A stretch of 64,000 nucleotides of DNA from Candidatus Moraniibacteriota bacterium (GCA_027008775.1 JALVDV010000003.1:12340-76339); one strand, 5' to 3'. Positions 4,686 through 49,469 are shown, counted from the first letter of the stretch. A program made the numbers and translations. Notes: a model not told the origin generated them from the sequence alone.

Positions 4686-5324
4686 ATGTCTGAAGAAAAA
4701 AATTATTTGGTCGTCGGTCTGGGAAATCCGGGCCCGGAATACGCTTACACCAGACACAACATTGGCTTCCGGATTCTGGAAAATTGGCTGTTTAACTTGA
4801 ATTTGACCGACAACTCTCCAATTGACAAACTGAAGTTTAATCAGAAACACCAGGCTAAATTAGGCATTATCAAATTGAATAATCGCAAAATCATCGCAGC
4901 TGAACCTCAAACTTTTATGAACAATTCCGGCTCTGCCGTCGCCTCCCTACAAAAATATTATCGGATTCCTCTGGAAAACATTTTGGTCATCCAAGATGAA
5001 TTGGATCTACCCCTGGGACAAGTCAGAATTTCTCGCTCCTCCGGACCGGCCGGCCACAACGGCCTAAAATCAATCATCCAACAATTGGGCAGTAACGATT
5101 TTTCTCGCCTCCGCCTGGGTATTGCCCCAAAGGAAAAACAAAAAATCAAACAAAAAGATTTTGTCCTAAACAAGTTTTCTCCTACCGAAGAAAAAATTAT
5201 TGATCAAATTCTGCCTCTCTCTAATGAAATTATAACCTATTTCATCAAACATGGCTTCTCCGCCACCGCCAATAAATTCAACAATCCCGATAGCCTTGCA
5301 AGAAACAAAAGTCTAGAAAAATAA
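4686..5324 (+). CDS. pth: peptidyl-tRNA hydrolase
   Basis: LVVGLGNPGPEYAYTRHNIGF...GHNGLKS signature motifs. Confidence 0.95.
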   Translation: MSEEKNYLVVGLGNPGPEYAYTRHNIGFRILENWLFNLNLTDNSPIDKLKFNQKHQAKLGIIKLNNRKIIAAEPQTFMNNSGSAVASLQKYYRIPLENILVIQDELDLPLGQVRISRSSGPAGHNGLKSIIQQLGSNDFSRLRLGIAPKEKQKIKQKDFVLNKFSPTEEKIIDQILPLSNEIITYFIKHGFSATANKFNNPDSLARNKSLEK

Positions 5325-5583
5325 AAAGCGCTGTACCACCCATGGCACCTAGCAAGACATAGGAGGGAAAAGTCTTACTAAATAATCCACGGGCAGTACA
5401 GCACTTTCTGGTAATTTTAAAAAACCGCAAGTCATCTGCACAACAACCATCGCTCCAACAATCGGATAAAGCATTATAACAAAATCTCAAAAAAAGTCAA
5501 GAGCAATCAAAGAAAAAAGGGGATGATGCGCTGACCATCCCCCATAAATTTTTGCCACTCTCCCGGGAAACCACCGGGATAAA

Positions 5584-5604
5584 CCGGACCGGACCCTGGT
5601 CCGG
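5584..5604. terminator. weak hairpin between convergent pth and the 5611..6015 gene
   Basis: CCGGACC-N7-GGTCCGG followed by GGATTTTC on + and TTTAT on the minus strand. Confidence 0.35.
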
Positions 5605-5610
5605 GGATTT

Positions 5611-6015
5611 TCAAGGGTTACAACGGCGTCTCAACAACTCTCTTAAGTGATCAGAGAGTTGTACATTCTTTCCCTTAACAATAACGGGGAAAGAACAAAC
5701 CTTGTATTTTTCATCGGGCAACTTGTAAATCACCCAGTTGCCACAATGAAAAAGAAACTCCGAATACACTCCACCCCCCCAATCCAAAAAAGCCGGGGGA
5801 TAAGCCTTTTTAGAAAAAGGTTGGCTTGGAGGGATGTAAATCTTTAAAAAATTTCCCTCCACATCAGCAAAAATCTCCTCCCTGTTATCGTTATTCACCA
5901 TCACTACTTCTCCCTGTTTTCTAAAGCATAAAAACAGGGAATCAATGAACAAGCAAATGAACGGTGACAGTAAGAATAAAAAAATTACCAAAAAACCAAT
6001 CACAAATCTCCTCAT
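5611..6015 (-). CDS. hypothetical membrane-anchored protein
   Basis: 134-aa ORF with N-terminal hydrophobic helix; strong RBS GAGGAGGG 8 nt upstream of ATG on the minus strand. Confidence 0.6.
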   Translation of the reverse strand: MRRFVIGFLVIFLFLLSPFICLFIDSLFLCFRKQGEVVMVNNDNREEIFADVEGNFLKIYIPPSQPFSKKAYPPAFLDWGGGVYSEFLFHCGNWVIYKLPDEKYKVCSFPVIVKGKNVQLSDHLRELLRRRCNP

Positions 6016-6243
6016 TTTTTTACCCTCCTCTTTTTTGGTATATTTTTAATATTTTAATGTACTTTAATACTTTGAAGAACTTACAAATGGTATACCAGCA
6101 AAAACAATTTTAATCAAGAGTCACTTCTGCCGAACTCCGAATGAAAACATTGCTTGCCAATTTTCAGACTAAAACATTATTGATCAAAAACCAATCCGCG
6201 CCACAGAAATCAAGTCCACTAATACACACAATTAATTAACCAA

Positions 6244-6740
6244 ACTCTTACATCAGCAACTCTACTGCGTTTTGCACCGAATAACTCACTTCATATCAAC
6301 AACTTCATTTATTTCACATCAAAAACCCCTTTCCACATCAAGAACTCTGACTTCATCTTGAAAACCATACTTTATACCGGAAACCTTATATTCTAATCAA
6401 AAAATCTCGTGCCAGAAACCATGTTTTACGACAGAGACACCAAAAGGGTTTATACCAAAGACTACATTTATACCGGAAATTTACATCAGAAACTACGTCT
6501 TATAAGAAAGATTGTAACCCACATTAAAAATTACATTTACATCGAAAACCTCACTTTTACATCACCAATTCCGTTACTTTACACATTAGAATATTTGCTT
6601 CACGTCAAAAACTCTATTCTATGTCAGAAACTCTATATTTTTACGCCTGACACTCTGCATTTTACACCAGAAAAATTTTACACCAAAAATCACATTTCAC
6701 ACCAGCAGTCCCACCTCAAAAAGAATCAAAAACCACACCT
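6244..6740. repeat. array of about 25 degenerate 19-20-bp tandem repeats (consensus approx TTTTACAYCAGAAACTCTA)
   Basis: Read directly: units such as tttcacatcaaaaacccct / ttccacatcaagaactctgac / tttataccggaaaccttata / tttacatcgaaaacctcac / ttttacaccagaaaaatt recur head-to-tail; the period is not a multiple of 3. Confidence 0.7.
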
Positions 6741-7010
6741 ACTATCATATAAGGTTGTATGATAGTATTTCACAAATCCGTTTAAAAAAGCCAAAAATCA
6801 AAAGTCAAAAAGCCAAAAAGTCATAATCACTCTTATATAAGGTTGTATGATAGTATTTTGCAAATCCGTTCAAAAAACATCAAAAAACAAAAGAACAAAA
6901 AACCATAACCACTATCATATAAGGTTATATGATAGTGTTTCACAAATCCACTCAAAAAAATAAAAAATAAAAAAGCGCATCTACTATCATATAAGGTTGT
7001 ATGATAGTAC
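6741..7010. repeat. four tandem 72-90-bp units, each with the inverted repeat ACTATCATA-N8-TATGATAGT followed by TTTCACAAATCC and an A-rich linker
   Basis: Palindromes at 6741-6766, 6829-6854 (2 mismatches in left arm), 6911-6936 (1 mismatch), 6983-7008. Confidence 0.8.
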
Positions 7011-7225
7011 TTCATAAAAAACCAATTTATTCAGCTTGTTTGCGGTTTTTTGATCTATTTTACCTATTCCTATCCATTGACCGCGCTGCCTCAATCATAA
7101 TGTAGCTCGCAAATACAAGTAAAAAGTATTATCACTTTCTCTTTTAAGAACAAATTTCAAAAACAAAAATACACTCACCCATCATCATTCAAAATTAGAA
7201 AACAGGAAACAAAAACGATCTATTT

Positions 7226-7260
7226 CAAACAAAAAAACCCGATAACGCCAACATGTTATC
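7226..7260 (-). terminator. rho-independent terminator after the DUF167 gene
   Basis: Minus-strand GATAAC-N8-GTTATC hairpin followed by GGGTTTTTTTGTTTG. Confidence 0.55.
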
Positions 7261-7356
7261 AGATTAACCGGCGCAATTACACGATAAAGGCGAAGAAATA
7301 TTCATCAAGACAGTAATCGGGCGGTGTCTCACCAAAATCGGCAAGAAATACAACTC

Positions 7357-7602
7357 CTAATTTTTATCAACCAACACATCAACAATTTTAATTCTGGCTG
7401 TTTGCCCAACCAGAATTCGCACGTTTGACTTGGAAACTCCGAAATACTCAGCCAAGAGTTTAATCAAGGCCTTGTTTGCCTTTCCCTTTTCTGGCGTCGC
7501 CGTCAACCAAACTTTATACTCATTCTCGGTAATCTTTTTAACCTGATTTTTTCCGGCTTTAGGTGTCACTTTTACATAAATTCTCTTCTGCTCCATTGTC
7601 AT
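7357..7602 (-). CDS. DUF167 (YggU-like) family protein
   Basis: 81 aa; KIYVKVTPKAGKNQV...KGKANKALIKLLAEYFGVSKSNVRILVGQTAR matches the YggU/UPF0235 family. Confidence 0.75.
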   Translation of the reverse strand: MTMEQKRIYVKVTPKAGKNQVKKITENEYKVWLTATPEKGKANKALIKLLAEYFGVSKSNVRILVGQTARIKIVDVLVDKN

Positions 7603-7641
7603 TTTAGCTTAGTTTTCCCGATACGGAAAACTCTTTCAGCT

Positions 7642-8253
7642 CTATTCAAATAATTCCGCCAAAGCGATTTTGCATCTTTTTTCATCCGGTCTATTCAGCC
7701 TACGTCTAACTCTCGTTAATTTATGAGGATGTTTTTTAAGATAATAGCGCAACCTTTCCCTATCTCGCAAATCAAAACGACCCCCAATCAACTTACGGAA
7801 AACATTTTTTCTTTGAGCAAAGTTATAAACAATCTCCGGCAGGTCGCTCAGATCAAAATCATTACCCACTTCAATTCTATTTTTATCTTCATTAAACCGA
7901 GGTTCCATATCCCTTCTATACTTTTTAAGTTTTAATTTGGCCAAACGCTTTTTTAAAATTTCCTGACTAGCCTTCTCTAAATTACCACCCTCCGAATCAC
8001 TTTTCTCTTGCCTATATTGCCCTGCCTTAAACAACGCATCCAGCGGAGCTATCCCTTTCTTGCCTCGCTCTTGTTCCTCCCAGCCCGACATACTCTTTAT
8101 AGCTTCATTTTTTTTGCTGTATTGCCCTGTTCCCAGTAGCGCATCTAGCGGAGCTATCTTTTTTTTAGGTTTTGTGCTGCCACCCCTGTCTTCCAGAACT
8201 CTAGGCCCCTCCCCCTCTTTTTTCTTGCCAAATAAAATTTCAAATAATCCCAT
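7642..8253 (-). CDS. hypothetical basic protein with duplicated IAPLDAL..GQY motif
   Basis: 203 aa; internal repeat KKKIAPLDALLGTGQYSKK / KKGIAPLDALFKAGQYRQE; no recognisable catalytic motif. Confidence 0.55.
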   Translation of the reverse strand: MGLFEILFGKKKEGEGPRVLEDRGGSTKPKKKIAPLDALLGTGQYSKKNEAIKSMSGWEEQERGKKGIAPLDALFKAGQYRQEKSDSEGGNLEKASQEILKKRLAKLKLKKYRRDMEPRFNEDKNRIEVGNDFDLSDLPEIVYNFAQRKNVFRKLIGGRFDLRDRERLRYYLKKHPHKLTRVRRRLNRPDEKRCKIALAELFE

Positions 8254-8371
8254 TTTAGAAAAAATAAATTATTACTTTGCAAACTTACTATAATCCATTT
8301 TAACTCATTTTAAAATAAGCAGATAAGAGCTCCGGAACACGCGAAAGCTCTCAACCCATTGTTTCACTAAA

Positions 8372-9106
8372 TCACTTTCTCCCCAACAACTCTCCAATTG
8401 TTGTTTTCCTCAGACTGCTTTTCTCCCGCGATCTTTTTACCGAACTAGAGTGCAAATCAACATTTGCTTTTCGCAAACGAGTGCCCCCCTGACGAAAGAC
8501 ACTCTTAATTGCCGCTCTTTCTCTGGCTGAGATACTTCTCAGACCCGATTTCTTTCGTCCAACTCGACTACGCTCCATCGCCTTTATAATCTCCTTGGGC
8601 AAATTAAACCTATCCAGCTCAATTCCTTCTCCCAAGAGAAATACATTCTTTCTGCTGTTGTACTTTATTTCATCCGGTTGCAAACGACTACTAACTTTTA
8701 AACCGACATCCCAAAATGCGTCAGGTAAAACAGTCTTTCTTCCCACACTTTTACCGGACAACATTCCTCTGTCAGAGTTTATTTGAGGCTCCTTCCTGCG
8801 TCTATCCCCAACGAAAAGACGGTCAAGCATTTTATCCAGAGCGCCACCCCTTCTCTTTTCAACCTTTTTCTCGCCGGCCTTCTCCGCCCAAGACTTTCTT
8901 TGCCAAAAGTTAGTCCCGGGATCATTCATTGTTCCCCCAACCGAATGATTCCCGCTATCAGACATTCCTTTCGCCTGAGGTGTAAATCTGTTGGCGCGAC
9001 CGGCGCCAAACTTACTTCTCGAAGAAGGAGCAGAAGAGAAAGCGGGTTTAATCACCCTCCTAAAACTACCACCCAATCCGCCACCGGAGAAATTTCTTCG
9101 CAACAT
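8372..9106 (-). CDS. hypothetical Arg/Ser/Gly-rich basic protein
   Basis: 244 aa, low complexity, probably disordered; in an apparent operon with flanking minus-strand genes. Confidence 0.5.
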   Translation of the reverse strand: MLRRNFSGGGLGGSFRRVIKPAFSSAPSSRSKFGAGRANRFTPQAKGMSDSGNHSVGGTMNDPGTNFWQRKSWAEKAGEKKVEKRRGGALDKMLDRLFVGDRRRKEPQINSDRGMLSGKSVGRKTVLPDAFWDVGLKVSSRLQPDEIKYNSRKNVFLLGEGIELDRFNLPKEIIKAMERSRVGRKKSGLRSISARERAAIKSVFRQGGTRLRKANVDLHSSSVKRSREKSSLRKTTIGELLGRK

Positions 9107-9119
9107 AAAAATAATGCTT

Positions 9120-9808
9120 TTAATGAATTAAAACTTCTCTCACTTTGCCGACAAAAAAACTTTTCAATTTTTCTAAATCGATACTCTTACCAGCAATTTC
9201 TTTTCTCAACTTCGGATCTAAAATTTTTCCCTGATCCTGAAAGGCCTGCAAAACATAACGACGAGACCCGGATAACCAATCGGCTATCTCTTTAAATTCC
9301 TCTTCACTGTGCAAACCGGAAACTACCGTTGTCCTAAATTCATAATCGTCAGCCAAATCCCTAATCAGTTCAACGCTTTTTTTAATTTTTTCCAAGTTAG
9401 CTTCTACTCCGCAAACCCGGGCATAATTTTCCGGACTAGCCTTAATATCCATCGCCACATAATCCACCAATCTACTTTTCAACAACTTCCGCAACACTCC
9501 TGGTCGTGTCCCATTGGAATCCAATTTCACCGCAAAACCCAATCCCTTAACTTTTTTAATAAACTCAACCAAATTCGGTTGCAAAGTTGGCTCTCCACCG
9601 GTAATACAAATTCCATCCAACTTTCCTCTTCTCATTTCCAAAAATTCAAAAAATTCATCCATCCGTTTCTCAACTTGCTCATTACCGTGAACAGTGAAGT
9701 GTGAACTGTGAACCAATTCCGGGTTATGACAAAAAGGACAACGAAAGTTGCAACCGGGAGTAAATACGGTTGCCGCCACTTTGCCTGGATAATCTATCAA
9801 AGTCATCT
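9120..9808 (-). CDS. radical SAM glycyl-radical-enzyme activase (NrdG/PflA-like, anaerobic RNR activase type)
   Basis: MTLIDYPGKVAATVFTPGCNFRCPFCHNPELV is the CxxxCxxC radical SAM cluster motif of the NrdG-type family; start set at the internal Met after the ftsK stop; the longer ORF 9120..10052 overlaps ftsK. Confidence 0.8.
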
Positions 9809-14358: not shown

Positions 14359-14477
14359 AATTATTTAAGAAATTTATTCCTTCTAAAAACTTAACAAACA
14401 AATACAAATAAGCGCATAACTCCACACAAACGAACAATCTTACTTCCTCAAATACAACGCAAACATACAATGATCAA

Positions 14478-14570
14478 ACAATAGAGCAATAAAGCAATGG
14501 AATAATGGAGCAATAGAGCAATGAAACAATAAAACAATACAACAACATAATAATACAATTAACACAACAC
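14478..14570. repeat. degenerate ~9-bp tandem repeat (AGCAATRRA)n
   Basis: caatagagcaataaagcaatggaataatggagcaatagagcaatgaaacaataaaacaatac read directly. Confidence 0.5.
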
Positions 14571-14614: not shown

Positions 14615-14642
14615 TACTACCATATTACGTAATATGGTAGTA
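14615..14642. promoter_or_regulatory. 28-bp perfect palindrome TACTACCATATTACGTAATATGGTAGTA (putative operator, copy A)
   Basis: Self-reverse-complementary; identical to the copy at 46397-46424 and one mismatch from the copy at 45858-45885; lies between divergent genes. Confidence 0.6.
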
Positions 14643-22965: not shown

Positions 22966-23060
22966 ACAAAATGGCAATTATATAGATGCCCCCGCCCTTA
23001 CAGGCGGGGAATTCCCGCTGATTTAAACATCAAATCGCAAACTACACCCCACCCGTCTTC

Positions 23061-23160
23061 TTCGCGCCATCATTATCTCACGACCGTGTCATTATGAACA
23101 GCATACTATATGCGCTATTTTTCTGCGCTTCATCATCTCGCGGTCGTGTTATTATGAACA
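23061..23160. repeat. two ~38-bp imperfect direct repeats ending in ATTATGAACA
   Basis: gcgccatcattatctcacgaccgtgtcattatgaaca vs gcgcttcatcatctcgcggtcgtgttattatgaaca; the internal 10-mer is inverted between copies (CACGACCGTG vs CGCGGTCGTG). Confidence 0.5.
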
Positions 23161-23339
23161 AATTCCAAAAACCCGCATCCATCAAACGCAAACCAATACC
23201 GATTTGACAAACAAGCCCAAAAAGCTTAAAGCTAAATTGATAATTTTTTATTTGGGTTATTTTATTGTTTTCCATTCAAGGTATTCTCGTACTTTTGTTT
23301 TTAAAAAAATTTTTACTTTTGATAAAGAAATGTTTTGCT

Positions 23340-23834: not shown

Positions 23835-26800
23835 ATGTCAAATAAAAAATTCACCCATCTCCATGTTCACACCCACTACAGCTTACTGGACGGATTGGGA
23901 AAAATTGATGATATCTTAGACCGCGTCCAAGAACTGGGCATGAACTCCATTGCCATTACCGACCATGGAGTAATGTACGGTGTTCCCGAATTTTATGATA
24001 AAGCCACTCAAAGAGGCATCAAACCAATCATTGGTTGTGAAATGTACCTGGCGCCCAATGGCTTGGAAAACAAAAGAGCCGGCATTGATGACACCCGCTA
24101 TCACCTTACCCTTTTAGCCAAAGACAACATCGGTTACAAAAACTTGATGAAATTGGTCACCATCGCCCACTTGGAGGGATTCTATTACAAACCTCGTATT
24201 GACATGAAAGTTTTGCGAAAATATTCCCGGGGACTAATAGGTATGAGCGGTTGCCTGCAAGGAGAAATCGCTCAACTGGCCATCAGCGGAAAATACAAAA
24301 GCGCCAAAAAAAAGGCCTTGGAATATCAAGAAATTTTCGGAAAAGACAACTACTATTTGGAACTGCAACACTTGCCCAACCTTCCGGAACAAAAAATAGC
24401 CAATGAACAACTCTTGAAAATATCCAAAGAAACCGGCATTCCGGTGGTAGCCACCGCCGATCTTCACTACATCTACCCGGAAGATGGAGAAATTCAAGAC
24501 ATTTTGGTTTGTATTCAAACCGGTCAGAAACTGAGTGATACTAACAGAATGTCTATGACTGACCATAAACTCCACCTGAAATCTCCGGAAGAAATGTGGC
24601 GGTATTTCAAAGATATTCCGGAGGCCCTGGAAAACACCCAAAAAATCGCCGAGAAATGTAATGTCAATATTGAATTTGGTAAAACCAAATTGCCAACTTT
24701 CAAAGTTCCCAAAGGTTACAGCGCCAGTAGCTATTTACGTGAACTTTGCGAAAAAGGAATTAAAGAGAGATATTTGGACAGAGGTTTGGAATTCACCGAA
24801 AAACATCGTCAACGTTTGGAATATGAACTGGGCATCATCAAAAAAATGGGCTTTGACGCCTACTTTCTTATCGTAGCTGATTTCATCAACTGGGCTAAAA
24901 AACAAAAAATTGCCGTTGGCCCCGGTCGAGGTAGCGCCGCCGGCAGTTTTGTTTCTTACCTAACCAAAATTACAGATATTGATCCCATTAAGTACGATCT
25001 GCTTTTTGAACGTTTTCTTAATCCTGACCGTATTTCCATGCCTGATGTTGATGTTGACTTTTCCGATCATCGTCGCGATGAGGTTTTGGCCTACGTCCGC
25101 AAAAAATATGGCGATGACCACGTTGCCCAAATCATCACTTTCGGAACAATGGCTGCCAAAGCTGCCATCCGAGACGCCGGCCGAGTTCTAGGTGTGGAAT
25201 ATTCTTACTGTGACAAACTTTCCAAAATGGTGCCCGATTTCACTAAACTTGACGAGGCTCTCAAAACCAGCAAAGAACTGGCTCACGAATACGCCAATAA
25301 CCCCGACGCCAAGAAAATCATTGATGCCGCCAAAAAATTGGAAGGAGTGGCTCGTCATGCCTCCGTCCATGCTTGCGGAGTAGTCATCACCGCCAAACCG
25401 GTAGTAGAATACTCCCCTTTGCAATATATGAGTGGCAAAGGCAAAAATGAAAATGCCATCGTCACCCAATACGCCGCCTCTTCCAAAGCTTCTTACGTGG
25501 AAAAAATCGGGCTTCTGAAAATGGACTTTCTCGGCTTGAAAAACTTAACCATCATTGAAAATGCCATTTCTATCATTAAAGCCACCACTGGAGACATTAT
25601 TGAGGTCGACAAAATTCCTCTGGATGATCCCGTAACCTACAAACTTTTCCAACGAGGGGATACTACCGGAATCTTTCAACTGGAATCCGCCGGAATGAAA
25701 AGATATCTCAAACAACTGAGACCGACCACCTTTGAAGATATTATTGCCATGGTCGCCCTTTATCGCCCCGGCCCAATGGAATGGATTCCCGACTTTATCG
25801 CCGGCAAACATGGTAAAAAGCAAATTACCTATCTTCACCCCAACTTGAAACCGATCTTGGAAAAAACCTATGGAGTAGCCGTTTACCAGGAACAAGTAAT
25901 GCAAATGGCCCAAGTTATTGCCGGCTTCAGCGGAGGCGAAGCCGATGTTCTCAGAAAGGCCATGGGTAAAAAAATTCCGGAAATAATTGCCAAGGAAAAA
26001 ATAAAATTTATCGAGGGAGCTCAAAAACAAGGCCTTGATAAAAAGTTGGCCGAAAAAATATTTTCTTTCATTGAACCATTCGCCGGCTACGGTTTCAATC
26101 GTTGTTTAACCGGCGACACCTTGATTACAGACGCAAAAACCGGAGAACAACGAACGATAGAATCTCTTTTTGAAGATTATAAAAACAAGAAAAAACTACC
26201 AAATGTTTTAACTTTAGATGAAAAAACGTCCAAATTAAAAACCGGCAAAATCACAAAGGTTTACAATAACGGAATAAAGAAAGTTTATAAATTGAAAACC
26301 GCTTCAGGAAGAGAAATTGTTGCCACTTCTAATCACCCCTTCTATACTTTCTCCGGTTGGAAGACCTTGAAAAATTTAAAAACCGGAGATTTCATCGCCG
26401 TAGCCAGAAAATTACCAATTAAAAATAAGCAAAAATTTCCAATTAAAAATTTCCAATTGATTGTCCTCGGTTATTTATTGGCTGAAGGAAATTTATGTCA
26501 CCCCCACGGTTTCTATTTCTACTCTACCGACAAATTAGAATTGGAAGATTATACCAACAATTTACTGAAATTTAAAAACACCAAGGCCACTAAAAATACC
26601 AGCAAATCAACTACATCCATTTATGCCGGTAGAATTAATCTAAACAAAGAATCAGAAGCAGTTAAATGGATAACCTCTCTCGGACTTAAAGGACAAAAAG
26701 CAACTAACAAAAAGTTTCCTTCCTTTGTATTTAAGCTAAACAACTCTCAACTATCTTTATTGCTGGCTAAAATGTTTCAAGGAGATGGCTGTATTAATTT

Positions 26801-28781
26801 AAAAAGAAAAGATCCTCAAATTTTCTATGCAACCTCATCAAAAACTTTAGCCCAGCAATTACAACACCTACTGCTACGATTAAACATGATGGCAACAATT
26901 CATAAAAAGAACTTTAAGTATCGCAACACCGTTAAAGTCGGCTACACCCTCACTATCAGTCGTTATGACAATATCAAAAATTTTTGTCAATCCATTGGTC
27001 AATATTTGATTGGAGAAAAAAAGAAAAATATCAAAACAATTTTAAAAAACCATCCTATTATCAATAAAACAATAAAAGAAAATTCCGCCCGAGGCAGTAA
27101 GGATATTATTCCTGCGGAAATACTTCCCCTGATAACTGCTTCTATAAAAAAGAATAACTACACCATTAAAGAATTTGCTAAAAAATACGGCTTTGCGGAA
27201 AGATTATTTTTTTCTGACAAAAAGAAAAAGGGGTACCTGCGCGAAACAGTTAAACTTATCGCTTTAAAATTAAAAGACGCCCAGTTACTTAACATTGCCA
27301 CTTCCGATATTTATTGGGATAAAATTAAATCCATTCGTAAAAAGGGACAACAAAAAACTTATGATTTAACAATTCAAAACACCCATAATTTTGTTGCCAA
27401 TGACATAATAGTTCATAATTCTCACGCCGCCTGTTACGCCCTAATCGGCTACCAAACAGCTTATCTCAAGGCTCACTACCCGGTTCAATTTATGGCCGCC
27501 CTTCTCAACTCCGACAAAGGCGACACTGACCGTATTGCCATTGAAATTGAAGAAGCTCGTAAAATGGGTATTAAAGTACTCCCTCCGGATATAAACGAAA
27601 GTTTCAACAACTTTGCCGTTGTTAAAAATTCTCCCACTCCGGAAAAAGTTTTAAAAGTAAAAAATGGCAAAGTCCTGAAACCGGAGGAAATAAAAGAACA
27701 AGCGGAAAAAATGAAGACTAAACACTCCCAAAAGCAGGATTCAATCGAATTTAACACCATCCGTTTTGGGCTGGAAGCCATTAAAGGCGTGGGCGCGCAT
27801 ATCGTAGATAAAATCATTGAAGAAAGAAAATTAAACGGACCCTTTAAAGATGTAGTTGATTTGGTGGAAAGAGTGCAGGATAAAGACTTAAACAAAAAAT
27901 CCTTGGAAGCTCTAGCCAAATCAGGCGCCTTGGATAGTATCTCCGACGGCAATCGCAATAAAATACTGGAAAACATCCCTCTGCTTCTCAACCACGCCAA
28001 GTCTCACCAAAAAACGATTGCCAGCGGCCAGTCTTCATTGTTTGGCGGAAATGATGACAATCCCGGCCTTGAAGCTCCGCAATTGGTTCTCCAAGAAACA
28101 CCCAATGTTTCCAAGAAACAAAGACTGTCTTGGGAAAAAGAACTTCTTGGCCTATACATTTCCGATCATCCCTTAAAAAACTTTCAAAATTTTTTCCAGA
28201 AAAATGCCACCCCTATCAGAAATCTTGGTCCCCAGCACTTAGATCAACTTGTAACTATTGGCGGAATCATAACAAAAATACAAAAAGTTTACACCAGACG
28301 CAATCAATTGATGTATTTTGCCACTCTGGAAGACGGGCTGGGAAAAATAGAAGTCTTGGTTTTTCCCAAGGTTCTGGAGAGAGACTACGATCTCTGGAAA
28401 GAAGAAAACATTGTTCTGTTAAAAGGACGTTACTCCGAAAAAGATGGCGAACCAAAATTGATTTGCGAAAACGGCTCTCTTATCAATGAAAAAGAATTAA
28501 AAAAGTACGAAAGCCAATCAAATACTCCCTTCTCCAAAAATCAAATATCCTCAACAAGAAAAATGTCTCCGGCAAAAAATCTAATTATTGAAATTTCCCC
28601 AAATACTCTGCAAAAAATAACCGCTTTAATTGCCCAACAAAAAAAAGGAGATAGCCGAATATATCTTACCGTCGCCAACTCCGACAAAAAATTAGAAACA
28701 AGCTATCAAATAGAATATTCCGACTCCCTCTTGCAAAAAATTACAAATATAGTTGGAACAGATAAAGTAAAAGTCATATAA
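23835..28781 (+). CDS. dnaE: DNA polymerase III alpha subunit, intein-containing
   Basis: PHP domain (HLHVHTHYSLLDG), polymerase core, OB fold; the 1648-aa length comes from an intein inserted between ...FAGYGFNR and SHAACYALIGYQTAYLKAHYP. Confidence 0.95.
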   Translation: MSNKKFTHLHVHTHYSLLDGLGKIDDILDRVQELGMNSIAITDHGVMYGVPEFYDKATQRGIKPIIGCEMYLAPNGLENKRAGIDDTRYHLTLLAKDNIGYKNLMKLVTIAHLEGFYYKPRIDMKVLRKYSRGLIGMSGCLQGEIAQLAISGKYKSAKKKALEYQEIFGKDNYYLELQHLPNLPEQKIANEQLLKISKETGIPVVATADLHYIYPEDGEIQDILVCIQTGQKLSDTNRMSMTDHKLHLKSPEEMWRYFKDIPEALENTQKIAEKCNVNIEFGKTKLPTFKVPKGYSASSYLRELCEKGIKERYLDRGLEFTEKHRQRLEYELGIIKKMGFDAYFLIVADFINWAKKQKIAVGPGRGSAAGSFVSYLTKITDIDPIKYDLLFERFLNPDRISMPDVDVDFSDHRRDEVLAYVRKKYGDDHVAQIITFGTMAAKAAIRDAGRVLGVEYSYCDKLSKMVPDFTKLDEALKTSKELAHEYANNPDAKKIIDAAKKLEGVARHASVHACGVVITAKPVVEYSPLQYMSGKGKNENAIVTQYAASSKASYVEKIGLLKMDFLGLKNLTIIENAISIIKATTGDIIEVDKIPLDDPVTYKLFQRGDTTGIFQLESAGMKRYLKQLRPTTFEDIIAMVALYRPGPMEWIPDFIAGKHGKKQITYLHPNLKPILEKTYGVAVYQEQVMQMAQVIAGFSGGEADVLRKAMGKKIPEIIAKEKIKFIEGAQKQGLDKKLAEKIFSFIEPFAGYGFNRCLTGDTLITDAKTGEQRTIESLFEDYKNKKKLPNVLTLDEKTSKLKTGKITKVYNNGIKKVYKLKTASGREIVATSNHPFYTFSGWKTLKNLKTGDFIAVARKLPIKNKQKFPIKNFQLIVLGYLLAEGNLCHPHGFYFYSTDKLELEDYTNNLLKFKNTKATKNTSKSTTSIYAGRINLNKESEAVKWITSLGLKGQKATNKKFPSFVFKLNNSQLSLLLAKMFQGDGCINLKRKDPQIFYATSSKTLAQQLQHLLLRLNMMATIHKKNFKYRNTVKVGYTLTISRYDNIKNFCQSIGQYLIGEKKKNIKTILKNHPIINKTIKENSARGSKDIIPAEILPLITASIKKNNYTIKEFAKKYGFAERLFFSDKKKKGYLRETVKLIALKLKDAQLLNIATSDIYWDKIKSIRKKGQQKTYDLTIQNTHNFVANDIIVHNSHAACYALIGYQTAYLKAHYPVQFMAALLNSDKGDTDRIAIEIEEARKMGIKVLPPDINESFNNFAVVKNSPTPEKVLKVKNGKVLKPEEIKEQAEKMKTKHSQKQDSIEFNTIRFGLEAIKGVGAHIVDKIIEERKLNGPFKDVVDLVERVQDKDLNKKSLEALAKSGALDSISDGNRNKILENIPLLLNHAKSHQKTIASGQSSLFGGNDDNPGLEAPQLVLQETPNVSKKQRLSWEKELLGLYISDHPLKNFQNFFQKNATPIRNLGPQHLDQLVTIGGIITKIQKVYTRRNQLMYFATLEDGLGKIEVLVFPKVLERDYDLWKEENIVLLKGRYSEKDGEPKLICENGSLINEKELKKYESQSNTPFSKNQISSTRKMSPAKNLIIEISPNTLQKITALIAQQKKGDSRIYLTVANSDKKLETSYQIEYSDSLLQKITNIVGTDKVKVI
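26103..27419 (+). mobile_element. intein with LAGLIDADG homing-endonuclease domain inside dnaE (about 439 aa)
   Basis: Starts CLTGDTLI (block A), TSNHPF (block B), two LAGLIDADG motifs (VLGYLLAEGNL; LLAKMFQGDGCIN), ends ...NDIIVHN followed by Ser +1; splice junctions fall in a conserved DnaE motif. Confidence 0.85.
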
Positions 28782-45945: not shown

Positions 45946-46383
45946 CTACAACGATAATAAATCTTTCAAAAATCTGTATTGAGGATAACGATCTAACAAA
46001 CCTTCATTGTATCTGACACTGCTTCCTTTTCGGCCACCTTTCTCCTTCGGCCATCTTTTTATCATTACTTTTTTATAAGCTTCATCTCTTTCGTGTAACC
46101 ATCTATCCACTTTTGAAATAGTTCCGAATCCAACACCAATTTTCTGTCTGATATCATCAAAAGTATCTCCATCAATGATACACTTGGCTATTTGCAGTCT
46201 TCTCGCCAACATAAGTGATTCGCTGGGAGTCAGGAGACCGACAAATAAATCAATTATTTCCTGTTTGGTTCTCAAATTGGAAATTAAACCAAAGAAATCA
46301 CCGATAATTTTACGTCTTTTTTCTATGGGTATATTTTTTGGTTTTACCTTAGCCATATATTTTTGATACTTTTTATGTTCCAA
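45946..46383 (-). CDS. TrpR-like DNA-binding protein, YerC/YecD family
   Basis: LLTPSESLMLARRLQIAKCIIDGDTFDDIRQKIGVGFGTISKVDRWL parallels B. subtilis YerC SLAQRLQVAKMIKQGYTYATIEQESGASTATISRVKRSL (helix-turn-helix of the Trp repressor fold). Confidence 0.8.
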   Translation of the reverse strand: MEHKKYQKYMAKVKPKNIPIEKRRKIIGDFFGLISNLRTKQEIIDLFVGLLTPSESLMLARRLQIAKCIIDGDTFDDIRQKIGVGFGTISKVDRWLHERDEAYKKVMIKRWPKEKGGRKGSSVRYNEGLLDRYPQYRFLKDLLSL

Positions 46384-46396
46384 ATTACTCCTATAA

Positions 46397-46424
46397 TACT
46401 ACCATATTACGTAATATGGTAGTA
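46397..46424. promoter_or_regulatory. 28-bp perfect palindrome TACTACCATATTACGTAATATGGTAGTA (copy C) 14 bp upstream of the TrpR-like start codon
   Basis: Overlaps a TATAAT hexamer (46392-46397); position fits an autoregulatory operator. Confidence 0.65.
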
Positions 46425-46460
46425 TTTAGATTTTGATTACATGTAAATATACTGGATGGA

Positions 46461-46535
46461 AATTTCTGAAAACTTTTGAAAATTTCTAAAAACTTTTGAG
46501 AACTTTTGAAAACTTTTTAAAACTTTTTAAATAAT
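46461..46535. repeat. ~13-bp tandem repeat (GAAAACTTTTGAA)n
   Basis: tctgaaaacttttgaaaatttctaaaaacttttgagaacttttgaaaactttttaaaactttttaaa read directly. Confidence 0.5.
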
Positions 46536-47388: not shown

Positions 47389-48735
47389 TTACTTTTTTTC
47401 CACAATATCCTGCTCTCCCCTCCGAACATCAAATCTATTTGACTCGTCGTCAATGTGAAGAACTAGACCATATTTACCAAACAGTTTTTTTAAACTGGTG
47501 ACCATTTTTAACATCTGTTCCACTAAAGTCGGATGCACAAACCTGGTGGAACGAAGCTCCACCAAATAAGTTAACGCCTTCAAATCTCCCACTACTCGAC
47601 AAGGAACTTGATAACCCATCGGGATGTAATATTGTTTAACAAATTTATCGGCCTTCAATTTTCCAATCAATTTCTTCTGTTCTCCTAAAAATTTCTCTGC
47701 CTCCTTTTTTAATTCTTCCGGCATCTGTTCCAAATACCATTTATGAAAACCATGTCGCATCGTCAATAAAGGCATTCGTTGAGCCACTGCTCGATGTCTT
47801 TGTAAATCCCGAAAAGAACCAAAGTCAAGCAAGAAATCATAACCGACCACTCCGGCAGTGGCAACGGAATTTGGCAATTCCGTTTTGGCCGGTCGTCTTT
47901 TTAGCTCCTGCTTGAATTCCGCCAAAACATCTTTATCCACCCCGTTAAATAGCAATTTAAACCCCTTCAATTTACTATTCTCAAAATAATATTTTTTCTG
48001 CATCAAATATTCATTATATTTCTCCGTCTTTTCATATCTTTTATGCCCAAAAGACTGGGGATACATTTTTCGCAACGCTTTTTCGGTTTTCTCAGCAATA
48101 TCCCGTACCTCCGCCAAAGGATGATGTCTCAACAACATTAACTCATCGGCAAATTGCCTAAAATTCATTCGCCATGCCACATTAGTCGTTGCTCCCGCCG
48201 GCAACCAACAACGAGTACTGTCAAAAGCTCGAGCGATAATCGCCTTTTCATAAATTTTTTCATTTTCACCTTCTTGACGAGGATGTTTTCTTCTAAGATG
48301 CTCTCGCATCGGCTCTTGAAGATGTAAATAAAAATCCCGCCAATTTTCCAATATCCTCTCGCCTGTCTTGGTCTTGGTGGGATTTAAAAAAATTTGTTTG
48401 GAAAAATCAACGTAACGAGTGGAGGCTTCCTGTCCGGAATACAGTCGCCAATCTTGAATGGCCTTTGCCGCCAACATTGAAACTCCTTCCACAAAAACCG
48501 TCGCGCTTCCACAATCACCAATTGATTTATGCCCGTAACCGACATAAAATTGCTCCATAAAATTCTCCGCCCCTTTTTCTTTTAAAACTTTTAAGTGATG
48601 TTTTATACCTCCGGTGGAACGAGAATGAAGGGCTTGCAACATTGCTTCCGCCTGCCCATCAATTTCCGCCCCATTATTCAAAACCAAAACAAAGCTCCCA
48701 TTTTGTTTTAATTTTTCCACACTATGTCCTTTCAT
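47389..48735 (-). CDS. thyX: flavin-dependent thymidylate synthase-like protein (long, divergent ThyX)
   Basis: GHKSIGDCGSATVFVEGVS...RLYSGQEASTRYV parallels the ThyX core (HxS..EH..FTF..GVSR...Q.SQRY); a second region has QRHRAVAQRMP with RHR but no conserved Ser; 448 aa, about twice a typical ThyX. Confidence 0.7.
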   Translation of the reverse strand: MKGHSVEKLKQNGSFVLVLNNGAEIDGQAEAMLQALHSRSTGGIKHHLKVLKEKGAENFMEQFYVGYGHKSIGDCGSATVFVEGVSMLAAKAIQDWRLYSGQEASTRYVDFSKQIFLNPTKTKTGERILENWRDFYLHLQEPMREHLRRKHPRQEGENEKIYEKAIIARAFDSTRCWLPAGATTNVAWRMNFRQFADELMLLRHHPLAEVRDIAEKTEKALRKMYPQSFGHKRYEKTEKYNEYLMQKKYYFENSKLKGFKLLFNGVDKDVLAEFKQELKRRPAKTELPNSVATAGVVGYDFLLDFGSFRDLQRHRAVAQRMPLLTMRHGFHKWYLEQMPEELKKEAEKFLGEQKKLIGKLKADKFVKQYYIPMGYQVPCRVVGDLKALTYLVELRSTRFVHPTLVEQMLKMVTSLKKLFGKYGLVLHIDDESNRFDVRRGEQDIVEKK

Positions 48736-48765
48736 TGTTTTATTTTTTAGTGCTTTTTATTTTGT

Positions 48766-48797
48766 AACAAAAAACTAGCTTTATAAACAAAAAGCTA
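48766..48797 (-). terminator. rho-independent terminator after dcd
   Basis: Minus strand TAGCTTT-N8-AAAGCTA then GTTTTTTGTT. Confidence 0.55.
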
Positions 48798-48908
48798 TCC
48801 CCCGGATAACTTTCATTCTACAACGTCCTTTCATAATCACACTCTAACACATCAATTTAAATTTTCCAAACACAAAGCTCTCCATTGTCATAAACAAAAA
48901 TTAAAAAA

Positions 48909-49469
48909 CTAAAAATTTTTATGCATACTCGACGGTTTCACCGTCTTATCACCATAGTACTTACTATTCAAACTTTTATCGCCATACGGACGCAAACAAG
49001 GCGATGACAATTTTTCAAAAGCCATCTGGGCAATAGGCATTTTATAATATAACTTAATTGGTAAAGAACCGGCATTAAAAAGTTCCAAAGTCATTTTTAA
49101 AGAATTGCCGGGATCCAAAAAGCCGGCCGTTGTATGCACAATCAACCCCAATCGCCCTAGAGAACTTTTACCCTCTAGACGAGCCACAAATTTCTCTGAC
49201 ACTCCGGTTTCTTCATAAACAAGAGCCAGAGCAAAGCTTCCCGGATGCAAAATAAATGATTTTTTATTATTGATGATTATTTTGGTCATCAAACCCTCGG
49301 CCGGCTTTTTAACGTCAATTACATGATTGTCAACCATATTAAAAACCATAAACTCTTTATCCAAACGCAAATCAACACTAGCCGGTTGAACCATTTTTTT
49401 ATTAAAGGGTTTAATAATAATTTCCCCCTTCCTCACCTCTTTGATGATATCTCTGTCTGAAAGTATCAT
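48909..49469 (-). CDS. dcd: dCTP deaminase
   Basis: MILSDRDI start, dUTPase-like fold with PASVDLRL and GSFALALVYE motifs. Confidence 0.9.
   Translation of the reverse strand: MILSDRDIIKEVRKGEIIIKPFNKKMVQPASVDLRLDKEFMVFNMVDNHVIDVKKPAEGLMTKIIINNKKSFILHPGSFALALVYEETGVSEKFVARLEGKSSLGRLGLIVHTTAGFLDPGNSLKMTLELFNAGSLPIKLYYKMPIAQMAFEKLSSPCLRPYGDKSLNSKYYGDKTVKPSSMHKNF

Follow-up and report, generated by a model that had tools for sequence, protein, structure and literature searches.

Gene-less copies of a putative TrpR-like operator in a dispensable repeat block of a Candidatus Moraniibacteriota bacterium

In a stretch of 64,000 nucleotides from a Candidatus Moraniibacteriota bacterium (GCA_027008775.1 JALVDV010000003.1:12340-76339; hereafter the window), a gene-free gap (6016-7356) separates the start of a minus-strand gene for a membrane protein of 134 amino acids (aa), at 6015, from the stop of a DUF167 gene at 7357. 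Within this gap lies a non-coding, gene-free block of 1.1 kilobases (kb; about 6122-7225) that holds an array of degenerate 19-20-base-pair (bp) repeats and four larger tandem units, each with a 26-bp dyad. We found that the dyads belong to an operator-like palindrome family, ACTAYCATAT-N6-ATATGRTAGT, that this family is tied to a gene for a TrpR-like protein, and that the block itself is dispensable and is not a replication origin. Judged from sequence, the block may be a lineage-specific cluster of gene-less operator copies that bind the TrpR-like repressor and serve as a sink or a looping platform, a reading that we favour tentatively. The genome was read over about 68 kb (the 64-kb window plus 4.4 kb beyond its left end).

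The four larger units consist each of an A-rich spacer, a dyad and a short tail, and repeat over 6719-7045 at spacings of 88, 82 and 72 bp:

6716-7010, no strand assigned: four tandem units of 72-88 bp, each an A-rich spacer, a 26-bp dyad and a TTTCACAAATCC-like tail
6741-6766, no strand assigned: dyad 1, ACTATCATATAAGGTTGTATGATAGT, one mismatch to the family pattern ACTAYCATAT-N6-ATATGRTAGT
6829-6854, no strand assigned: dyad 2, ACTCTTATATAAGGTTGTATGATAGT, a degenerate copy with three mismatches to the family pattern, whose unit is gone in three-unit strains
6911-6936, no strand assigned: dyad 3, ACTATCATATAAGGTTATATGATAGT, no mismatch to the family pattern
6983-7008, no strand assigned: dyad 4, ACTATCATATAAGGTTGTATGATAGT, one mismatch to the family pattern

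The dyads, which start at 6741, 6829, 6911 and 6983 (none expected in shuffled sequence), share the form ACTATCATAT-AAGGTT-(G/A)TATGATAGT. Their combined match to the family pattern (1, 3, 0 and 1 mismatches) compares with 0.01 expected from shuffles. Inside the units the dyads are near-perfect while the A-rich spacers drift. The original prediction, made from the sequence of the window, had described four dyad-bearing larger units, all closed by the same short string TTTCACAAATCC; the four units are there and their dyads look like protein-binding sites, but the closing string accompanies only three of the dyads, and the second has TTTTGCAAATCC in its place. The exact block dyad was found in no viral or JGI metagenome contig.

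A closely related canonical palindrome, ACTACCATATTACGTAATATGGTAGT, occurs in three further copies in the window, two of which flank a gene for a helix-turn-helix protein:

14616-14641, no strand assigned: canonical palindrome between the NTP-transferase and Lactamase_B_3 genes, kept in L036, L001 and L002
45859-45884, no strand assigned: canonical palindrome in the gap from the trpR-like stop codon to the MazG-like gene
45946-46383, minus strand: gene for a TrpR/YerC-family helix-turn-helix protein of 145 aa, the presumed dyad binder (PF01371, E-value 1.5e-14)
46398-46423, no strand assigned: canonical palindrome 15 bp upstream of the trpR-like start codon, in the same arrangement in L148-L150

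The 145-aa protein scores 42.5 bits against TIGR02531 (YerC/YecD), exactly at the cut-off, and its nearest solved structures are 3FRW, 3KOR and 3G1C. Its gene is located 39 kb from the block, with tmk, thyX, dcd, a deoxynucleoside monophosphate kinase, MazG and an HD-domain gene as neighbours.

The association between palindrome and regulator extends well beyond the window. A metagenome search with the degenerate pattern ACTAYCATAT-N6-RTATGRTAGT, whose fixed arms make arm conservation in the hit set a product of construction, matched 105 loci and no viral contig in IMG/VR. A Trp_repressor-family open reading frame (ORF) is present in 20 of the 105 loci; these proteins fall into two subgroups, 34-46% identical to the window protein, and the ORF lies at most 170 bp from the palindrome in all 20 cases, mostly at most 33 bp. 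Palindromes stand on either side of the gene in at least 10 loci, and such both-sided sites at L090, L125, L073, L087, L127 and L148-L153 accompany proteins that are 34-94% identical. The same flanking pair is retained in L148-L150 (94% protein identity); at 66% identity, a lineage retains both the gene order tmk - trpR-like - mazG and two flanking sites of the variant TTTACCATATTACGTAATATGGTAAA, and at 52% identity another lineage has a long palindrome of different sequence that still shows the TACCAT/ATGGTA arms. In two lineages the trpR-like gene lies within a thymidylate/deoxynucleoside triphosphate (dNTP) cluster (tmk, thyX or thyA, DHFR, dcd, MazG). The other genes beside the palindrome are varied (RmlD, FTCD_C, MurD, NUDIX, FAD oxidase), and an outward-facing ORF start lies at most 40 bp from 61 of about 109 canonical sites. 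Arms with ATC/GAT, a right arm with GTATG and mixed arms all occur at canonical sites elsewhere, so the version of the dyad found in the block falls within the range of the family. The sources of the regulator homologues label them Patescibacteria or Moranbacteria, so the bacterium that carries the block probably belongs to the Patescibacteria as well.

What does the palindrome do? TrpR-family proteins bind 20-bp palindromes and often autoregulate, and the operator of HisR/YerC, a different 20-bp palindrome, was assigned by the same comparative-genomics logic (PMC9413887). By this usual logic, the palindrome would be the cognate autoregulatory operator of a TrpR-like subfamily. It was not found as a regulatory motif in the literature searched, and the TrpR-like gene with its flanking 26-bp palindromes appears to be an undescribed regulator-operator pair. 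Like the operators of E. coli TrpR and Firmicutes HisR/YerC, the palindrome has a presumed binder of fold family PF01371 and stands beside the regulator's own gene, implying autoregulation, and beside promoters. Unlike them, (i) the motif measures 26-28 bp against the 20 bp of cacTTTAnnnnnnTAAAgtg (HisR) or TGTACTnGTnnACnAGTACA (TrpR), and the protein is about 40 aa longer; (ii) sites typically stand on either side of the gene; (iii) the genes around it act in dNTP metabolism and the cell envelope, not in the trp or his pathways; and (iv) the four block copies adjoin no gene. Transcriptional regulation has hardly been explored in Patescibacteria (the Candidate Phyla Radiation, CPR), and the TrpR/YerC-like protein and the 26-bp palindrome, often within a thymidylate/dNTP cluster, provide a testable pair.

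Several features accompany the palindrome in the window and elsewhere. At many metagenome sites the 26-bp palindrome adjoins a shorter one that lacks the 6-bp centre (ACTAYCATATATGRTAGT), and sites with such a pair, or with non-conserved complementary flanks that extend the palindrome, were seen at L058, L066, L074, L085, L088, L105, L110, L123, L126, L128, L136 and L147. Just upstream (in gene sense) of the trpR-like palindrome and promoter, 46460-46531 carries 6.5 copies of a 10-bp TGAAAACTTT with phased A-tracts that may form a curved upstream element. Repeats of 8-bp period (of the CAATAGAG type, with further scores at periods 16 and 24) occupy 14476-14558, some 60 bp away from the palindrome at 14616-14641. 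As a general companion of the palindrome, tandem repeats were rejected: they are enriched about 2-fold beside it relative to random positions that include coding DNA, which we judged not convincing.

In the block, 725-990 bp separate the dyads from the nearest gene start (6015), compared with the roughly 40 bp of promoter-proximal sites. Because no gene start falls within 700 bp, we regard them as orphan (gene-less) operators. Dimers of the TrpR/YerC-family repressor, encoded 39 kb away, would bind these dyads, and the block would share the repressor with true promoters as a sink or decoy; alternatively, it would form a looping platform 0.7-1.0 kb upstream of the gene for the 134-aa membrane protein. 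Repressor binding at the block dyads, and any regulatory effect, we infer from sequence features. Known decoy or titration sites (E. coli datA for DnaA; tandem-repeat decoys) resemble the block in being high-quality sites off promoters with a copy number that varies among strains; they differ in that the factor here would be a TrpR-like repressor, in that titration is putative, and in that the 19-mer array has no counterpart there.

A number of observations weigh against a function as operator cluster. The dyads are distant from any promoter, and their 6-bp centre, AAGGTT, is not palindromic, unlike that of most canonical sites. Dyad 2 is decaying and copy number varies among strains, both of which fit neutral unequal crossing-over. 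Several sites elsewhere extend the palindrome by non-conserved, covarying complementary flanks, and hairpin formation, besides duplex recognition, may matter for the palindrome. An autoregulated repressor buffers itself against decoys, so the regulatory effect could be nil. Finally, the 19-mers, about 40% of the block, are left without a role.

The block varies among strains and is missing from relatives. Its neighbourhood comprises the following features:

5611-6015, minus strand: gene for the 134-aa membrane protein
6016-6121, minus strand: promoter and 5' leader of the 134-aa gene, the left boundary of the block and outside it (the promoter is predicted from sequence)
6118-6113, minus strand: putative -35 box TTGATT upstream of the 134-aa gene
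6122-6243, no strand assigned: left unique segment of the block, replaced by the 20 bp CCGGCACCCGACAAGCTCCA in L036, L037 and L039
7011-7225, no strand assigned: right unique segment of the block, missing in related lineages and without excess RNA structure on either strand
7236-7265, minus strand: terminator-like hairpin 3' of the DUF167 gene, the right boundary of the block and outside it, kept in relatives
7357-7602, minus strand: DUF167 gene

The locus is nearly unchanged in contigs of four public samples, one of them matching the window; thus, the block is not an assembly artefact. Two haplotypes exist, with four and three dyad units (three in strains L001 and L003), and differ by an 88-bp in-register deletion. 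In two related lineages, L036/L037 (GCA_027038515.1) and L038/L039, only 254 bp separate the DUF167 and 134-aa genes, and about 6122-7225 is replaced by the 20 bp CCGGCACCCGACAAGCTCCA, a clean empty site in each. The three lineages (the one with the block and the two without it) are mutually about 87-94% identical. Across them the 106-bp leader (6016-6121) is identical except for one single-nucleotide polymorphism in L039, and the 134-aa proteins are 77% identical. Its absence from the same site in two related lineages makes the block dispensable, not essential. At each junction of the block lies a diverged copy of the empty-site string CTCCAAACAAAAAAC, a pattern that either target-site duplication or deletion between short direct repeats would explain, and lineages so similar to one another are compatible with a gain as well as with a loss of the block. 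The resulting natural polymorphism of 0, 3 or 4 orphan operator copies offers a way to study the importance of decoy sites in a minimal genome.

The left part of the block is made of a different repeat:

6244-6715, plus strand: array of about 22-24 degenerate 19-20-bp direct repeats in a single orientation, consensus TTTACATCAGAAACTCTAT

Wrap-around alignment of this segment to the 19-mer consensus scores 267, against 70 +/- 15 in shuffles, and base autocorrelation peaks at lags 19 (z 5.2) and 38 (z 3.5). A weight matrix trained on the array gives 15 hits of at least 14 bits in the array and 1 in the remaining window, both strands counted, a comparison that is partly circular. Units agree with the consensus at about 76% of aligned positions and are mostly spaced 19-20 bp apart (range 15 to 43 bp); the G content of the plus strand is 8.7%, against 14.8% in the window. 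The array described in the original prediction as about 25 degenerate head-to-tail repeats is thus real, at a slightly lower count. The gap around it (6016-7356) is non-coding, as proposed, with no credible gene inside, and the doubt expressed there about an ORF at 6409-6762 was justified: its best Pfam E-value is 0.013, below the cut-off, it has no homologue among 1.84 billion representative proteins, and the contig collection has no called gene for it. A 60-aa ORF at 6833-7015 is called as a gene at this locus only. With no credible family match and no homologues, both ORFs were rejected as proteins.

Between strain haplotypes the array differs at a single position (window 6506), and its match to the consensus, at about 76%, is far below the similarity between lineages, so the array is older than the lineage split. 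We rejected the 19-mers as dyad half-sites because the half-site matrix scores negative throughout the array. About 1 Mb of retrieved related loci contained no comparable 19-mer cluster, and plasmid, phage and viral-contig collections no related array; the single viral match is a two-unit chance match in apparently coding sequence. Comparison of the block with the rest of the window and with relatives gave A-rich chance matches only. The 19-mers would be a second, older, one-orientation repeat and may be only a decaying satellite. In an extended version of the operator reading, which we consider doubtful, the block would act as a natural, copy-number-variable operator sponge that sets the free level or noise of the TrpR-like regulator, with the 19-mers bound by a second protein in a joint nucleoprotein platform. 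If true, this platform would be of a kind not described in bacteria, for a regulator that is present in several CPR lineages and sits in a thymidylate/dNTP gene cluster.

Neutral evolution is the main rival explanation and a serious one, although on balance we think it somewhat unlikely. The block would then be a functionless satellite that arose by slippage and unequal crossing-over, in which one operator copy was amplified by chance and which now awaits deletion. This explanation accommodates its dispensability in related lineages, the variation in unit number (3 vs 4), the degeneration of dyad 2 and the position of the block beside a strain-variable region. It also accommodates the nested low-complexity periods of the block (7-8, 19-20 and 72-88 bp) and the fact that the 19-mers have no partner protein, no RNA structure and no homologue anywhere searched. 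A satellite free to decay is harder to reconcile with an array that, at about 76% match, predates the split of lineages about 93% identical and persists despite the deletion bias of a gene-dense genome, with its copies in the two haplotypes differing only at 6506. Nor would it predict near-perfect dyads amid drifting spacers, or the uneven conservation along the 19-mer unit (chi-square p about 0.01, in an alignment biased towards the consensus).

Two minor rivals read the block as a mobile relic or as an RNA leader. In the first, which we hold to be improbable, the block is the relic or cargo of a mobile or extrachromosomal element, inserted without its genes, with the 19-mers as iterons or centromere repeats and the dyads as control sites. 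Direct 19-20-bp repeats beside larger dyad units recall the iteron and centromere regions of the P1 or F origins and pSK41 parC, and this likeness in architecture could point to such a source. Plasmid iteron arrays, for instance the 19-bp iterons of P1 oriR/incA or F oriS/incC, have a spacing of about 22 bp. They share with the block a unit of about 19 bp in many copies of one orientation, a non-coding location and a position beside other control repeats; unlike them, the block has no Rep gene, DnaA box or defined AT-rich unwinding element, matches its consensus at about 76% with a 19-20-bp spacing, and is chromosomal, between housekeeping genes. Functional iterons are near-identical 17-22-bp units in helical phase, whereas the units here are far more degenerate, vary in spacing from 15 to 43 bp and, at 19-20 bp, run out of helical phase. 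Among tandem-repeat plasmid centromeres, F sopC is made of 43-bp units that each hold an inverted repeat, and pSK41 and R1 parC are made of direct repeats. The dyad-bearing tandem units of the block resemble the former and its arrays of about 20-bp direct repeats resemble pSK41 parC, but no ParA, ParB, ParM or ParR gene lies near the block, and the family to which its dyads belong consists of transcription-factor operators found at promoters across the chromosome. The sharp presence/absence junction, with a CTCCAAACAAAAAAC copy at both ends that could be a target-site duplication, and the degeneracy of the array, which implies a longer history elsewhere, would also suit an inserted element. 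Deletion between short direct repeats in the relatives explains the junctions equally well, however, and no terminal inverted repeats of the kind left by a miniature inverted-repeat transposable element or an insertion sequence were seen at the block. Rep, ParA/ParB and integrase genes are absent from the ORFs scanned with Pfam (the flanking genes and most larger window ORFs), which encode only housekeeping and hypothetical proteins. By blastn the block matched none of 72,556 plasmid (PLSDB) or 50,697 phage (INPHARED) records, and neither the palindrome nor a two-unit array matched IMG/VR viral contigs.

In the second, which is very unlikely, the block acts as RNA, either as a leftward repetitive leader of the 134-aa gene transcribed from dyad promoters or as a rightward non-coding RNA, with the 19-nucleotide repeats acting as a sponge for an RNA-binding protein. 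The dyad arms do hold -10-like hexamers (TATGAT), and canonical dyads lie 5-40 bp from start codons and so probably overlap core promoters. RNA from the minus strand of the array has unusually little structure (z +3.2), a property that would fit a single-stranded platform for binding. However, the leader of the 134-aa gene is conserved in relatives, where it would drive expression with no block present, and no unit bounded by terminators can be seen. With folding z-scores from -0.15 to +3.2, neither strand folds better than shuffles, and no Rfam family reaches the gathering score (the sole sub-threshold match is PreQ1, E-value 2.7). A known or structured non-coding RNA was rejected on these two grounds.

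The original prediction had seen an iteron-like organisation reminiscent of plasmid or phage replication origins and of parC/parS-like partition sites. As a description of structure (direct repeats plus dyads in non-coding DNA) it stands, but the suggested function is not supported: a role as chromosomal replication or segregation site (oriC, datA-like DnaA titration, parS cluster or dif) is essentially excluded, as are origin and partition functions of plasmid or phage type. GC skew stays between -0.1 and -0.4 across the 68 kb with no sign change, and the cumulative curve is monotonic. Seven array units lie within one mismatch of the relaxed DnaA box TTWTNCACA, but equally many such boxes occur at 48600-49200 in the window, and the canonical box TTATCCACA is absent from the array at up to one mismatch; the original prediction, too, had seen no classical box. 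Similarly, the left half of parS, TGTTTCAC, occurs five times in the block at up to one mismatch against 0.44 expected, an enrichment that is weak since the units are not independent of one another, and the full parS palindrome TGTTNCACGTGAAACA, allowed up to three mismatches, has one window site (three mismatches) against 2.1 expected by chance. The genes ftsK, dnaX and gyrB are nearby; dnaA, as also stated earlier, is not in the window, nor is parB, and parA/parB are missing as well from the called genes in the 4.4 kb to the left. A partner such as ParB or Rep was found nowhere among the window ORFs scanned. With the absence of the block from close relatives, the skew and the box counts led us to reject oriC, dif or a terminus, in line with the caution against an oriC in the original prediction, and the chance-level matches led us to reject parS. 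What had looked like a candidate origin or partition site in an uncultured lineage can thereby be set aside.

The setting of the block is chromosomal. The window encodes housekeeping functions (dnaX, pth, ftsK, rplS, gyrA, polA, dnaE, greA, thrS, ruvB, uvrD, lgt and seven tRNAs). A search of the GTDB representative genomes with Pth returned only distant relatives, at most 47% identical, so the species apparently falls outside that set. Directly beside the block, at 7642-8253 and 8372-9106 (about 7500-9500), lie genes for two Lys/Arg-rich, lineage-specific hypothetical proteins; none of the flanking hypothetical proteins received a phage or defence annotation. Between two strain haplotypes that are identical over 5000-6500, these genes differ in length and by 8-15% in DNA, which points to recombination or to a hypervariable patch next to the block. 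On the other side, the 106-bp leader (6016-6121, minus strand) has no Rfam match and no excess folding, and the minus strand at 5505-5612 forms GC-rich stem-loops and a terminator-like hairpin 3' of the 134-aa gene, again with no Rfam match; at the corresponding position the relative L036 carries about 190 bp of additional sequence.

Further from the block, dnaE (DNA polymerase III alpha subunit, 23835-28781) contains an intein with a LAGLIDADG homing-endonuclease domain, and the 867-bp gap upstream of it holds two copies of a direct repeat of about 35 bp (…CATCAT(T/C)ATCTC(A/G)CG(A/G)(C/T)CGTGT(C/T)ATTATGAACA…) at 23060-23165. A distinct 28-bp perfect palindrome, ATTATGATATTATCAATAATATCATAAT, lies at about 16360-16395 of L002, some 350-380 bp to the left of window position 1, in the dnaX-gyrB gap of about 985 bp, which is another long gene-free gap.

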